DNA of 64,000 nucleotides, taken from assembly GCA_951406725.2 (NCBI GenBank), contig OX597825.1, positions 2,728,001 to 2,792,000 on the forward strand, read 5' to 3'. Shown here piece by piece: positions 12,290 to 57,551 of this stretch (position 1 is the first letter of the stretch; each line of letters starts with the position of its first letter). Under the pieces are notes generated by a model. It searched no databases. It was not told the DNA's origin and saw only the letters and a program-made list of their open reading frames with translations. A program made the translations under genes and the position numbers. This stretch comes from Octopus vulgaris (lineage: Eukaryota).

Positions 12290-12547
12290 TATAATAAGGG
12301 TTTTTGCAACAAGTTGCTTAAGCCACATACCGAAAATTTTAGAAATAGCATCCAAAAGACTACTATTTCCTTTTGTAGTCTTTTGGCTGCTATTTCTAAA
12401 ATTTTCGGTATGTGGTTTAAGCAACTTGTTGCAAAAAAAACCTTGTTATTATAATCATATAAATTTTTACCGAATATGGTCCTTTTCCATACCGAAATAC
12501 TACTAGGTGAAATTTGTTTATTTTATTAAATTAATTATATTTCACCC
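12290..12547 (+). mobile_element. Fold-back element 1 (~75-bp inverted arms + tail) within (TA)n
   Basis: Arms 12290-12363 and 12375-12453 are near-perfect reverse complements, 11-nt loop; tail ends aaattaattatatttcaccc; TA runs on both sides. Confidence 0.85.
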
Positions 12548-12703
12548 TATATATATATATATAACTTATAGATAAGGGCAAAGGAAAATCTTTCTAATGC
12601 CAAATATACCGAAAATTGGACATATTGTCCATTACCATATAATTTTTCACCATACGCACGCTACTCGAAAAAAGCCGACAGAAATCTCTAAAAAATTCCG
12701 TTA

Positions 12704-12763
12704 TTACCATATCGGACCGATTTCAGGGTTAGTTCGTAAGAACCCTCCCTTCGCCAGTGATAA
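12704..12763 (-). ncRNA. Antisense copy of the type I hammerhead, core variant CUGGCGA
   Basis: Reverse complement reads ttatca ctggcga aggg ag ggttc ttac gaact aa ccct gaaa tcggtccga ta tggtaa. Confidence 0.65.
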
Positions 12764-12770
12764 TTGTCGT

Positions 12771-12830
12771 TTATCACTGACGAAGGGAGGGTCCTTACGA
12801 ACTAATCCTGAAATCGGTCCGATATGGTAA
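12771..12830 (+). ncRNA. Type I hammerhead ribozyme
   Basis: Stem I ttatca/tggtaa; core CUGACGA 12777-83; stem II aggg...tcct; GAAA 12810-13; near-palindromic stem III tcgg-t-ccga; AUA triplet, predicted cut after 12824. Confidence 0.8.
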
Positions 12831-13013
12831 TAATGGAATCTTTTTGAAATTTCTGTCGACCTTTTTTTAGTAGCGTGCGTATTGTGAAAAAATTATAATG
12901 GTAATGAACAATGTGTCTAATTTCGGCATATTTAGCATTGTAAATTTTTTCGTTTGCCCTTATTTATAAGTTGTTTATAAGTTTAACCATTAAATGTAAT
13001 TTTTAATATGCTG

Positions 13014-13068
13014 GCCATTGATAAACTGATGAATGTCCTGAGAAGAGACATGAAACAATTGTAGTGGC
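13014..13068 (+). ncRNA. Type I minimal hammerhead ribozyme with 7-nt insertion before the core
   Basis: gccat[tgataaa]CUGAUGA atgtc-ctgagaaga-gacat GAAA caattg UA gtggc; palindromic stem III caattg; GUA triplet. Confidence 0.7.
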
Positions 13069-14659
13069 GAATATAATTTTATTTAATTTATATTAACATT
13101 TTTTTATGTATTGGATTAAATCTGTCTTTGTTTGATTTGCAAAATAGTGGTTTTGTCTCTAATTAATATTATATAATATTTTACTATAAAATTGGATTCA
13201 ATCCTAAATCTGATTTTCCCTGTAAATTTGGATTTATTCCCTAATATTTATTATATATATATATATATATATATACATAAATATGTGTGCGTGTGTGTGA
13301 AGGAAGTCATATAGAGGAAGTCATATGTATGTGTGTGTATATATATATACATATATATATATATATATATATATATATAGAGAGAGAGAGAGAGAGAGAG
13401 ACAGACAGACATACAGACACACATGTACTCATATATAAGAGCATTATATATACACGCGTATTTGACATTGGTATCAAAGAAGGTGTTTAGTTGTACGTAA
13501 CTTTTCAATTAATTGTAATTTGGTTTTGTTCTTTATTTTGTTTAGAGATCGATTTTTAAGCACTATTGGTTTTTATACCTGAGGAATTATGTACGTCTAC
13601 GCTGGCAGCCAGCGCACCATTTTCACCCCACCCCCATTATAGCCCCATTTTTCTTCAATATCTCTTGATCTTGCCTCCTTCCCCGAGGAGGGATAGTATT
13701 TGCCAGTTTGCGTAGCTCTACTTGTGAGAACTCAAAACATAGTACTTTTAATCAAGTGAAATATGAATATCAATAGATTTCAGATATGATATAATTGGAG
13801 AACATTTTTTGTTGTGACAGCCTTTCTGGAAGTTCTGTTTCATTAACGATTTTAAAATGAATAATGCCAATTATCAATTATATTTGTTCTTCAAAGAGCT
13901 TAGTCACACTAGAGTAAAGAACAGATAATCTAAGCAGTCAATTGGTTAACTGGAAATAAGAGTGAATTCTCTTTTAGTTCACATCCTACATTGTGAAATA
14001 ATGTTGAACATATGGACTAATGCAATGGCTTATATTTTATATAAAAGGAAATATCCTCGCAACAGCAACATCATCATCATTCATAATATTTCCTATTCCT
14101 ATTATCGGCTTCATACGGATCGATATAAAAACCATAATGCTGGGTATTGAACATACAAAAAAAACCCATAGTCCGAGCGAGTCAATAATATTATGAAATG
14201 GTAAAGAAAATAAACATAATCAATAAAGGTGTTTGTTCCCTATTGGTTTAGTTAAAGGAAAAACAGTGATCTTCAATCTATTATAATTATATTCTTCTGT
14301 CTTTCTCCGTCACAACTTATGAACTATCTATGTCCAGTATATGCGTGTGTATGTAATAGGGAGGTTTGTGAACGTGTGTTTGTGTGTTTGTGTGTGTGTG
14401 TATGTGCGTGTGTGTGTGTATCTGTGCAATGGAAATGGGATGGGGAACATTCGACGCTGAAAAGAAAAATCAAGCAGCATTTCAACTCAGTGTGAGTATA
14501 TGTGTGTATATGTGCCTAATTCATTAATATTAAGAAATGTATGTAATAAAGTTTGAATAGTTAGTTATTATAACATCAACTATAAGTCACGGTCTGCTTT
14601 TTGTTGTTTTAAGTCGTATGAGTTTAGGTTGGATTCAGTAATGGAGAGCGCAATTGAAA

Positions 14660-14830
14660 GGATACGTCGCTGCGAAAAAGTTGGTATTTTCTTGCCAGCT
14701 CCTGTATTTAGTCACGGCCAGCTTCATGTGGTCCTTATGTCATACAAGAAGAACGGACAACATAAAAATTCTTTTGAAGGAAACCAGGGTGTTAATTTCG
14801 GATAGATTTTTCACAAAAGCAAATTAGCTT
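14660..14830 (+). mobile_element. Helitron PIF1-like helicase C-terminal relic
   Basis: From 14674 reads EKVGIFLPAPVFSHGQLHVVL, matching the conserved KVG..LP.PVFSHGQLYVALSR motif; frameshifted afterwards (TDNIKILL). Confidence 0.75.
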
Positions 14831-54949: not shown

Positions 54950-55858
54950 TGGATTATACATACATATGTACATATATGTATATATATTATATATGTGTAA
55001 GTATATATATATACACATATATATATATATATATGTAGATAGATAAATAAGATATATATATATATATATATATATATATATATATATATATATATAGATA
55101 CATATATATATGTGTGTGGGTGGGTGTTTTGTATGTGTGTAAGTAAGTTTGCATATATGTACCTCTATGGAGAGATGCATATTACGCACGCACATATAAA
55201 ACTGCACACATAATTTATGTAATACACACACATGTGTATGGATGTGCATCTTTCTCCCTGCGTGCATGTGGGTGCGCCGGTAAAAGTCTATATATACGCA
55301 TACTACCTACAAGTAAAAACATGGAGTGCATGCATACATACATACATACATACATGCATAATACATACATACATACATACATACATATATATATATATAT
55401 AAATATATAAATATACAATTTTTTTGAAATATCTATCTATATATATATATATATATATATATATATATATATATATATATATATATGTATATATATTCAT
55501 TCTCCATGTGTTTGCTATTTCTCTGCACATTGGAGTTGAGAAATATCCAAATAAAATATATGTACATGCACATACATGCAAGGCATATTTTCGCCCATCT
55601 ATTTTTCTATTATGTATATACATACATGTATATATATATATATATATATATATATATATAACGACAAATCTATATTACAAATATACTCATACATAAATGC
55701 ATATTCATATAAACTAGATACATATATATAAATATATATAGATAAATGAAAAATATATATGTATGTGTATATATATATATATATATATATATATATATAT
55801 ATATATATATATATGCATATATCTATATATGCATCATTTTCTCTATATGTATATATAT
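54950..55858. repeat. Extended (TA)n/(CATA)n low-complexity region
   Basis: Direct inspection. Confidence 0.9.
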
Positions 55859-55859
55859 A

Positions 55860-56026
55860 GAAGACGAAGACGGATGTATAAAAAAACAAACAAGTGTGAT
55901 AGGTTGTCCTTCGTAAAAAATAGAAAACTCTTTTTACGTTTCGAGCCCACGCTTTTCAACTGAAAGGAATACGAGAAATAAACAATGAAAATTACTTGTA
56001 GACGTTCAACGGCCCAGCATGGCCAA
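55860..56026 (-). mobile_element. Short TA-embedded element with degenerate hammerhead-like fold (family of 57361-57551)
   Basis: Reverse complement ctttcagttgaaaagcgtgggctcgaaacgtaaaaag and ...gtcttcgtctt align with the 57361-57551 copy. Confidence 0.7.
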
Positions 56027-56148
56027 TATATAGATACATATTTATATATTATAGGCATATATCTATATGTGCTTGTGAGTTAGTGAGTGCATGCGTGTGC
56101 GCGTGCTTCTTTAAAAGGACATGGCCAAATATTAATGGTCTAAGATTC

Positions 56149-56815
56149 TACGAGGGTGTCCTGAAAATTTCATACACTGATTCGAATGAGTGATGCTAGG
56201 GCAGTGAAATCATGCACACGGAAACTCATCTTATAAATGACGGCATTGCTTTTTCTTCCGGTAAAGCGAAATTTGGCGGATCGAAATATGTCGGTAAACA
56301 TAACTACTAGTTGCGATTTCTCTTGAAATGGGCCAAATTTGGAATCCTGGTGTTATCAGTACTTGTAAATAAACGACATAGCATCCGACGTCATCAATAC
56401 TGTAATTTATTTGCTACATAAGGAGATGACAGCCCATCTTTATCAACGTTGCCAATCTGAGTTGTTGAATTTAGGAGAGAAACTTGAAGGTGACCCTAAG
56501 TTTGGACGTCCTGCGACAGACACTTTGCTCATCATCACATAGTGATGCATGATAGGTGCTGGAGGAATAGCGAATGCGATTAGCGCATGCTTTGAGGCAT
56601 ATGAGAATATTCGACGGTCATGAAAGGATATGAACAACAGTTATGAAAAGCTATCAAGACTAAACAACCAGGAAAACTGACAAAAGGGTTGTAGTTGAAT
56701 CAGGATAATGGCCCAGCAAAAAGGTTCTTCCTTTCAATGGCTGATGTACGTCACTGTGTCTTTCGACTCGATCCTCCACCCTTTTTCCTTGATTTACCTC
56801 AGTCTGTATACTTCT
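56149..56815 (+). mobile_element. mariner transposon relic
   Basis: TA|cgagggtgtcctgaaa is a mariner-type TIR start; LEGDPKFGRPAT (LEDDPRSGRP) at ~56485; decayed HPPYSPDLAP-like codons at ~56770-56805. Confidence 0.7.
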
Positions 56816-57159
56816 TGAGATGATTATAATAACTTTTCTTATATAACGATGTTATATTTTCCATTTGATTTTCAACGTTACTTTTGTAATATAAAATTTA
56901 CATTGACACATTCTTGTATATCCAATGGCTGCGATAAACATCATCTTTCACATGCAGCTATTTATATGAAGTTTCGATCGGTATACACATGTCGGAAATA
57001 TGTACCGAGGTATGTTCACAGAAACAAATATACACGCACACGCACTCATATACATCTATCTATCTATCTATCTATCTATCTATCTATCTATCTATCTATC
57101 TATCTATCTATATCTATATATAAAATTGATCAAAATAAAAACATGATGCCAAGGATTCA

Positions 57160-57237
57160 GCGGTACATATGTTTCGGGCCTTTATTAGACAGATTTATAA
57201 CAATGCATAATGTATGTTTGTGGCCTTCTTCAGCCGC
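57160..57237 (-). ncRNA. Type I minimal hammerhead ribozyme
   Basis: Reverse complement gcgg CUGAAGA aggcc [long loop] ggccc GAAA catatg UA ccgc: stem I gcgg/ccgc, palindromic stem III catatg, GUA triplet; lies in a ~170-bp island (57121-57290) between microsatellites. Confidence 0.8.
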
Positions 57238-57360
57238 GCACAACAGCTTCCACAAGGACATGTGTTACATCAAGTACTCACCCCGAATTTCTATATCTAT
57301 ATATATATATATATATATATATATATATATAAACATGGCCAAATATTAATGGTCTAAGAT

Positions 57361-57551
57361 GGTCGCCATGATAGATCGTTAGCCACTACACACATTTTTG
57401 TCTCTCCTTGTTTCTTTTTGTGTCCCTTTCTGTAGAAGAGCGTAGGCTCGAAACGTAAAAGATTTTTTCTATTCCTGGGCGTTATACTAATACATCTGTT
57501 TGGTTTGTACACCATCTGTCTTCGTCTTTTGTTTTTTCGTAAACTCTCCCT
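57361..57551 (+). mobile_element. Short TA-embedded element with variant hammerhead-like fold
   Basis: 57426-57461: cttt CUGUAGAA gagc-gtag-gctc GAAA cg UA aaag; inverted homolog at 55860-56026. Confidence 0.7.

Follow-up and report, generated by a model that had tools for sequence, protein, structure and literature searches.

Hammerhead motifs beside (TA)n arrays in the Octopus vulgaris genome as candidate truncated ends of several Penelope-like element families

Described hammerhead-bearing elements and the present motifs

Hammerhead-bearing Penelope-like elements (PLEs) that insert at (TA)n, including in Octopus bimaculoides, as well as minimal, dimer-type hammerheads in PLE ends, are already published, and the present work adds what are probably new families of such elements. 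The minimal hammerheads (min-HHRs) of metazoan PLEs follow the consensus CUGANGAH G...C GAAAN-palindrome-NUH, have a U-rich 5' flank, and form highly heterogeneous families in which copies are mostly solo and opposite-strand pairs are spaced 100-700 bp apart (PMC4209133). In the Hydra clade of PLEs, according to our own counts in the supplement of PMC8557442, the hammerhead starts 87-210 nt from the consensus end in 23 of 25 families, stem III has a 1-nt centre in 16 of 25, and (TA)n is the insertion preference of 26 of the 27 listed families. Octopus genomes are rich in PLEs, with 31 recently active families in O. vulgaris (PMC13282606).

In the window analyzed here, a stretch of 64,000 nt of O. 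vulgaris DNA, four repeat families (B, X, Y, and Z; Table 1) comprise six hammerhead motifs, most of them decayed. These share with the min-HHRs the type I fold, a short stem I, an extra nucleotide after A9, a palindromic stem III and the dimer design; here too, the families are heterogeneous, most copies are solo, and pairs on opposite strands occur. Y resembles Drosophila virilis Penelope in that its stem II is bulged and its palindromic stem III is short (PMC4209133). Unlike the min-HHRs, both family X copies bear a U at core position 6, and in Z 7 nt intervene before C3; a search of one supplement file of PMC4209133 returned no octopus entry. With the Hydra clade, the units have in common the (TA)n insertion and a hammerhead close to the 3' end; B presents the same 1-nt stem III centre, with 5 bp vs 4 in that clade, and inverted, 5'-truncated copies are described there for Penelope-13_HM, as here (PMC8557442). 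Judged by eye, the Z motif resembles Hydra-1_Obim of O. bimaculoides where stems I, II, and III begin, whereas the window units differ from it in their flanks and 3' ends; the four window motifs sought in the supplement of PMC8557442 were absent. Naiad PLEs (Naiad_Obim and Naiad_Ovul) also insert at (TA)n in Octopus and form tandem and inverted structures, but are devoid of canonical hammerheads. Non-LTR retrozymes are likewise short, non-coding, PLE-related and equipped with a type I hammerhead, but the present motifs are of the minimal PLE type and their copies are solo or head-to-head (PMC7229834; 10.64898/2026.07.22.740005). Neptune or Poseidon parents are possible.

Table 1. Repeat units, hammerhead matches and neighboring repeats in the window (positions relative to its first nucleotide).
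Feature	Position	Strand	Remarks
Second family Z 3' end	10235..10336	-	no hammerhead; ends at TA array 10185-10234
Palindrome, 137 bp, 90% (12301-12437)	12294..12456	.	beside (TA)23; no hammerhead
"12461 variant" of the first-pass annotation	12457..12517	+	part of a repeat, not a hammerhead
Family B, left copy	12564..12767	-	3' end at ~12564, against (TA)8
Family B, right copy	12768..12979	+	head-to-head with left copy
Exact-core descriptor match	12777-12824	+	loosest exact-core setting
Family Z unit	12980..13250	+	hammerhead-bearing
Exact-core descriptor match	13026-13063	+	loosest exact-core setting
Family X, copy 1	55860..56030	-	more decayed than copy 2; 3' flank (TA)4
Family Y unit	57120..57292	-	hammerhead-bearing
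Exact-core descriptor match	57164-57233	-	loosest exact-core setting
Family X, copy 2	57361..57551	+	minimal hammerhead 57426-57461

Motif scan and predicted folds

All six stretches quoted by the first-pass annotation are present at the coordinates that it gave. The window was scanned with a type I hammerhead descriptor at six settings, and the counts were compared with those in 40 local dinucleotide shuffles. The loosest exact-core setting, relaxed only after the motifs had been seen, yielded 3 matches against a shuffle mean of 0.15, with 0/40 shuffles reaching 3, while the strict setting yielded 1 match against 0.075 expected and was equalled in 3/40 shuffles. One core mismatch with stems of at least 4 bp gave 4 matches, vs 0.075 in shuffles. 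The excess over shuffled sequence, which had been proposed as a check, was indeed observed, as no shuffle out of 40 matched the observed count in five of the six settings. Two further relaxed-setting matches (17606-17682 and 20372-20438, both minus strand) were taken as likely chance.

The core CUGANGA...GAAA...UH is exact in the right B copy, Z, and Y, and it fails in both family X copies and at 12461; of the three hammerheads annotated as canonical, all three thus have an exact core, but only the one at 12777 (+) is canonical throughout. Stem III is self-complementary in all six motifs. Their assignment to the minimal, Penelope-like class of type I hammerheads with palindromic stem III is supported, and the computed self-duplexes of this stem amount to -13.9 kcal/mol in B, -6.4 in Z, -7.0 in Y, and -1.7 in family X copy 2. 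Stem I adjoins the core in B (6-7 bp), Y (4 bp), family X copy 2 (4 bp), and copy 1 (3 bp), with a 7-nt gap in Z. It begins 106-236 nt from the 3' ends of the units, and the predicted cuts lie 44-187 nt from these ends. Monomer folding z-scores were unremarkable in five of the six motifs. Two targeted scans with the Rfam hammerhead models gave no match, and no hammerhead family appeared among 150 of the 275 rows listed for Rfam on the whole window. Rfam miRNA matches in the window scored below gathering and reflect palindromes and microsatellites. Exact-pattern scans for the motifs in metagenome and viral contigs returned 0 loci.

The motifs had been presented as sequence-diverse. They fall into four families but are not all independent: those at 55930 and 57426 (80% likeness over 70 nt) belong to a single family, as do the two B copies. 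Among the variant hammerheads proposed at 12461, 55930, and 57426, the latter two were retained, albeit with A6U cores. The one at 12461 was rejected: its CCGAATA combines U4C and G8U, its TACTAC is not palindromic, none of the six descriptor settings detects it, and no shift of CCGAATA toward CTGANGA appeared among 40 of the 57 rows listed from public contigs.

Repeat units, TA arrays, and copy number

The two B copies (12564-12979) form a 390-bp palindrome (86%), with a computed folding energy of -257 kcal/mol and 89% of its nucleotides paired. The right copy carries a fully canonical hammerhead (12771-12830), with a 6-bp stem I, CTGACGA at 12777-12783, a 4-bp stem II with an inner hairpin, GAAA at 12810-12813, stem III AUCGG-U-CCGAU and a predicted cut after A12824. 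The left copy bears a minus-strand hammerhead (12703-12764; predicted cut at 12710) that had been overlooked by the first-pass annotation (12710-12757), with the core CTGGCGA (A6G). Since run X1 reads C>T at 12754 in 38313 of a summed depth of 38483, the majority core of family B is CUGACGA, and the five variant rows listed in the two B motifs (12736, 12754, 12798, 12801, 12806 + 12807) restore A6, preserve pairs or sit in a loop. Among the rows listed, at least 11 distinct left-arm/right-arm head-to-head junctions were found for B, each being a single contig with 80% likeness and sides of 20-59 nt, a type flagged as error-prone. Opposite-strand joints at near-mirror positions were excluded from this count as palindrome artefacts, and joints of 12823/12824 to 12946, although located at the predicted cut, were discarded, their sides being 22-24 nt with undetermined letters between. 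Summed depth is about 8 times lower over the 5' half of the B motif than over the B body, with no smooth fall along B toward its 5' end.

The Z hammerhead has the core CTGATGA (13026-13032), a 5-bp stem II, the palindrome ACAAUUGU and a predicted cut after 13063. Its stem I (13014-13018 with 13064-13068) does not adjoin the core, 7 unpaired nt lying between them, and this displacement suggests that the copy is likely inactive; no 7-nt insertion restoring the 3' strand of stem I was found in 12 of the 17 insertion rows listed. The 3' end of Z is duplicated in partial tandem, to ~13178 and to 13250, followed by (TA)12, and the score of the second 3' copy was reached by 8/1000 shuffles. The additional Z end at 10235 matches 13076-13179 with 78% over 106 nt (E 9e-18). 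Y has the core CTGAAGA (57227-57233), a 4-bp stem I, the palindrome ACAUAUGU and a predicted cut at 57164; its stem II requires a bulge and has a loop of ~40 nt, and the unit is flanked by (TA)17 at its 5' end and by TATATA then (GATA)n at its 3' end. A fold-back structure carrying the hammerhead at its apex was discarded for both Z and Y, the scores being reached by 212/1000 and 129/1000 shuffles, respectively.

Family X copy 2 combines the core CTGTAGA (A6U), an extra A, GAGC-GUAG-GCUC and GAAA-CG-UA, with a predicted cut after 57457 and TATA(CATA)n(TA)15 as its 3' flank, and deviates from the published minimal consensus at position 6 alone. In copy 1, the core is CAGTTGA (U4A, A6U), G10.1 is replaced by A, the self-complementary stem III is ACGU, and the predicted cut lies at 55935. 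When family X was traced in mis-predicted octopus proteins, one unrelated repetitive match and no candidate were obtained.

The window contains 40 (TA)6+ arrays, and 26% of its positions lie within 300 nt of one. Because the motifs form only two clusters within the window, their nearness to TA is by itself weak evidence. The statement that all of them are bounded by TA is right at the 3' ends of the left B copy, Z, Y, and family X copy 1, where TATATA lies within 3 nt (background, 3.7% of positions); it is loose for family X copy 2 and wrong for the right B copy, which abuts Z. Overall, 5 of the 7 3' ends in the window have TATATA within the next 3 nt, a partly circular figure as some of these ends were defined via the TA array itself. 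Within 60 nt of the unit ends there are only 6 of the 40 arrays and 201 of the 1710 array bases, which is at odds with the proposal that the units may help explain the TA richness. Contigs from public runs of three organisms were aligned to 950 nt that include B and Z, with 4441, 4242, and 3665 contigs, and the high-copy character that had been attributed to the whole set was established for these two families. The TA association of B was confirmed in many genomic copies, as 34 contigs each of runs X1 and X3 continue behind 12979 with loose ends that read TATATA.... The 361 contigs of run X15, only tentatively an RNA run, and the empty start/end table were left out of the evidence, since contigs reveal neither ends nor strand.

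Origin of the motifs

The motifs are probably 5'-truncated 3' ends (pseudo-LTRs, pLTRs) of several PLE families whose endonuclease, we infer, cuts at (TA)n; PLE origin, enzyme targeting, and cleavage are all deduced here. The reverse transcriptase and GIY-YIG endonuclease of a PLE at another place in the genome would nick a TA array and copy the element RNA there from its 3' end. Copying would usually halt after 100-250 nt, so that only the ribozyme-bearing tail would be inserted, often accompanied by a further copy in head-to-head or partial tandem arrangement, and often beside earlier insertions. Two motifs in tandem on the parent transcript would pair via their self-complementary stem III and be cut as a dimer at a low rate. 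The solo and inverted copies in the window are likely inert, as they are devoid of a tandem partner, mostly have core or stem damage and, in the B pair, would yield an RNA that is one long hairpin. Truncation at the 5' end, with inverted and partial tandem copies, is indeed present (B pair and its junctions, Z 3' end), and the variable head-to-head junctions fit inverted, 5'-truncated PLE ends. No reverse transcriptase or GIY-YIG sequence was found in the window, where none of the 385 stop-free segments of at least 45 aa reached a Pfam cutoff, in a scan insensitive enough to miss mariner and non-LTR relics too; this is as expected for truncated ends. No parent element was linked to any of the families.

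The units might instead be dedicated short non-autonomous elements, i.e., retrozyme- or SINE-like pLTR derivatives of ~170-270 nt with a fixed 5' boundary, moved in trans by PLE enzymes, which we consider rather unlikely. Shared starts hint at such fixed short units over random truncation: both B copies open at the stem I boundary (within 4 nt), two further junctions, at 12763 and 12770, are also seen at other loci, and the likeness between family X copies 1 and 2 begins at an identical GCCATG. Z and Y are moreover flanked by TA on both sides, and animal retrozymes have been traced back to PLE pLTRs in a preprint that also counts solo monomers (10.64898/2026.07.22.740005). However, the window has no head-to-tail array of hammerhead-bearing units, which speaks against retrozymes, the differing B junctions lie mostly far from stem I, and the lower depth over the 5' half of the B motif is also unfavorable. 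Copies truncated at the 5' end would account for the variable junctions no less well than the dedicated elements that had been proposed.

An incidental hammerhead within fold-back, MITE-like DNA transposons inserting at TA, formed by B and the neighboring palindromes, appears very unlikely. Three near-perfect palindromes of 124-390 bp do occur in the window, two of them without a hammerhead, and the 12294..12456 palindrome, itself high-copy in public contigs, has outward ends that resemble the family B 3' end (score reached by 1/1000 shuffles). Yet the palindrome centre varies between loci, the majority B core is canonical with listed variation that preserves stems, and families X, Y, and Z would be unaccounted for. 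Chance matches in AT-rich, repeat-rich DNA are more improbable still: chance does hold for 12461 and would suit the two doubtful relaxed-setting matches, the unremarkable z-scores and the absence of an Rfam match, but it conflicts with the shuffle counts, with a self-complementary stem III in every motif and with the canonical majority core, and for family B it is largely refuted.

Changes at hammerhead core position 6 cripple activity in magnesium. It is conceivable, although unlikely, that family X represents a high-copy non-autonomous element of fixed length (~190 nt) that targets TA and has spread with U6, either as a natural A6U ribozyme variant or because a fold without cleavage suffices for PLE-driven spread; B units starting at the stem I boundary would then mean that the ribozyme sets the 5' end.

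If confirmed, truncated PLE ends would add several octopus families to the hammerhead-bearing, (TA)n-inserting PLEs, at a density sufficient for six motifs in these 64 kb. The role of the hammerhead in PLEs is described as unclear (PMC8557442), and the co-occurrence in one genome of the canonical-core family B and of a family X in which A6U is possibly fixed would allow a direct comparison of the importance of cleavage for the spread of these elements.

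Hammerhead motifs and the families that carry them

The hammerhead motifs noted in the first-pass annotation were commoner in the window (~34% GC, 86 tandem-repeat entries) than in shuffled sequence. A strict type I descriptor found a sole match in the whole window, against a shuffle mean of 0.075 and with 3 of 40 shuffles equalling it. With a looser setting, picked after the motifs were known, in which stem I could be displaced and stem II could begin with a short run, three matches were obtained versus 0.15 in shuffles, a number reached by 0 of 40, while one core mismatch with stems of at least 4 bp gave four versus 0.075. 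Rfam hammerhead models gave no match in any region scanned. Stem II excepted, monomer folds did not form the three-way junction, as expected, since stem III of such motifs forms only between two copies. The annotation's several hammerheads could be retained at 12777, 13026, 57164, 57426 and 55930; the last, whose core is altered at two positions and whose 10.1-11.1 pair is broken, was accepted because it is homologous to 57426 (80% over 70 nt). The candidate at 12461 was rejected, as U4, G8 and stem III all fail.

Together with the minus-strand motif at 12710-12757, these make six motifs, which belong to four short repeat families (B, Z, Y and X), so that their supposed sequence diversity holds between families, whereas 55930 and 57426 share one family and the two B copies another. 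Family B is a 390-bp palindrome (86%) made of two ~205-nt copies placed head-to-head, both beginning at most 4 nt from stem I; the left copy terminates in (TA)8 and the right one continues into Z. The two X copies, in divergent orientation and 1.3 kb apart, both start with GCCATG and have U at core position 6. From predicted cut to 3' end, the distance is 44-187 nt (the X copy 1 value is off by one).

Summed depth in the segment 12980-13029 was ~15-30 times that of the adjoining Z motif, and three joints connect it to family B left-arm sequence; instead of forming the 5' part of Z, this segment may come from a B-related subfamily, as an inverted piece.

Positions of the repeat units, motif matches and other repeats in the window
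Feature	Position (strand)	Remarks
Family B, left copy	12564-12767	
Family B, right copy	12768-12979	
Family Z unit	12980-13250	3' end doubled, partial tandem
Second Z 3' end	10235-10336	likewise terminates at TA array
Family Y unit	57120-57292	flanked by (TA)17 and TATATA(GATA)n
Family X, copy 1	55860-56030 (-)	
Family X, copy 2	57361-57551 (+)	
Strict match	12777-12824 (+)	also among one-mismatch matches
Loosened matches	13026-13063 (+), 57164-57233 (-)	
One-mismatch matches	12710-12757 (-), 57430-57457 (+), 17606 (-)	17606 doubtful
Relaxed hammerhead-like matches	17606-17682 (-), 20372-20438 (-)	broken cores, long loops; likely chance
SINE-like repeat	2709-2899, 23699-23814, 29904-30011, 51617-51957, 58521-58745	dispersed family
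Non-LTR retrotransposon relic	32000-32800 (+)	decayed; end near (TAA)n
Mariner-like relic	56148-56820 (+)	decayed; between both X copies
Direct repeat	56119-56146, 57333-57360	exact, 28 bp, spacing 1214 bp
TA-ended repeat	4487-4583, 10467-10571	~100 bp, two copies, 84%
Palindrome	48299-48422	124 bp, 90%; short TA-rich flanks

Copies outside the window and the TA flanks

Part of the sequence words of 12294-13243 was present in 20 of the 24 runs listed (10 studies, four organism labels). Contigs of four runs were aligned to this region, which lies outside families X and Y, at 80% likeness, with 4441, 4242 and 3665 contigs for the public runs X1, X3 and X4, respectively, each from a different organism, and 29 of 30 bins covered. 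The ratio of summed depth to single-locus joint depth was ~500 in the 5' half of the B motif, 3000-5000 in the B body, 300-1250 in the Z motif and 14000-76000 in the Z tail; as this ratio is not a copy number and is usable only as an order of magnitude, it is taken to mean that B and Z copies number hundreds to many thousands. Of the summed depth of 38483 at position 12754 in X1, 38313 read T, as did nearly all depth in X3 and X4, so the family B core is CUGACGA. Among the B-motif variants listed, the 12806 change turns G-U into G-C, those at 12801 and 12807 retain the pair as wobble, and those at 12736 and 12798 lie in a loop. At least 11 distinct left-arm to right-arm joins, at differing points, occurred among the 15 joint and 12 between-letter entries listed; these joins come from single contigs with short sides and can be error-prone, but as a set they speak against a single fold-back element of fixed form.

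The proposed tie between motifs and (TA)n was seen at most of the 3' ends, TATATA following within 3 nt at five of seven (background 3.7%), some of which were positioned using the TA array itself. Independent evidence came from family B loose ends across runs, at least 34 contigs in X1 and at least 34 in X3 continuing past 12979 as TATATA among those listed. Nearness was less telling: none of the six predicted cut sites is more than 261 nt away from a (TA)6+ array (background, 26% of positions within 300 nt), which is weak by itself because the motifs form only two clusters, and the B right copy runs into Z. The further suggestion that these elements help account for the TA richness of the window is not supported, since a unit end is found within 60 nt of no more than 6 of the 40 arrays (201 of 1710 array bases); the literature reading is insertion into pre-existing TA arrays.

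Other repeats and relics

None of the 385 stop-free segments of at least 45 aa reached the Pfam cutoff in a window-wide scan. A frame through the SINE-like repeat (51752-52096, -) matched 2 of 65 candidate predicted proteins, from Octopus vulgaris (84%) and Octopus bimaculoides (65%), in keeping with which the window is treated as Octopus DNA; from its motifs, we take this repeat to be a tRNA-SINE. The non-LTR relic, in which the C-terminus of a restriction-like endonuclease comes after an RT-like motif, is presumably of Dong/R4 type, and the other, with EGDPKFGRPAT and QDNGPAK in translation, is assumed on similar grounds to be a mariner; neither had a Pfam match. The right copy of the direct repeat directly adjoins X copy 2 at its 5' junction, and the repeat may represent neighbouring DNA that was copied when the unit inserted. 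The TA-ended repeat, whose same end meets a TA array in both copies, is a further such family with no recognised hammerhead, and the 124-bp palindrome also carries none.

Origin of the units

Minimal hammerheads number thousands per animal genome and are heterogeneous and mostly solo; some are paired on opposite strands at a spacing of 100-700 bp, and even the dimers show low activity (Cervera and de la Pena, 2014, PMC4209133). Hydra-clade Penelope-like elements (PLEs), including Hydra-1_Obim of Octopus bimaculoides, combine hammerheads with (TA)n insertion (Craig et al., 2021, PMC8557442); by our own count in the supplement, the motif starts 87-210 nt from the consensus end in 23 of 25, and the stem III centre is 1 nt in 16 of 25. 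The units are, in our analysis, most likely 3' ends of Penelope-like type that carry minimal hammerheads and lie at (TA)n. Compared by eye, they do not match the 3' end of Hydra-1_Obim. The tandem units that define retrozymes (PMC7229834; preprint 10.64898/2026.07.22.740005) are absent from the window.

The main rival, that the units are dedicated short non-autonomous elements mobilised in trans, is less likely yet keeps some weight because 5' boundaries are shared between the X copies and likewise between the B copies. That family X is a unit of fixed length with an A6U core throughout the family seems unlikely. Short (2-nt) insertions before C3 and A6C impair cleavage among the natural variants tested, which do not include A6U (PMC3088659, PMC7151607). 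The literature searched, most subscription journals aside, held no report of a natural A6U core and, Repbase and Dfam also aside, no paper on these octopus families. An O. vulgaris repeat annotation gives 31 recently active PLE families (PMC13282606), and its sequence library may already contain B, Z, Y and X.

From a mechanistic point of view, and by extension from what is known of PLEs, a protein with RT and GIY-YIG domains, encoded elsewhere in the genome, would prime at a TA array, and copying would proceed from the RNA 3' end and halt early, leaving ribozyme-bearing tails that would gather beside those inserted before. Where a parent transcript carried the motif in tandem, its copies would pair with each other through the palindromic stem III, with slow cutting; self-duplex energies were -13.9 (B), -6.4 (Z), -7.0 (Y) and -1.7 kcal/mol (X copy 2). 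RNA spanning the B pair is predicted to fold into one hairpin (-257 kcal/mol, 89% paired), and the window copies are likely inert.
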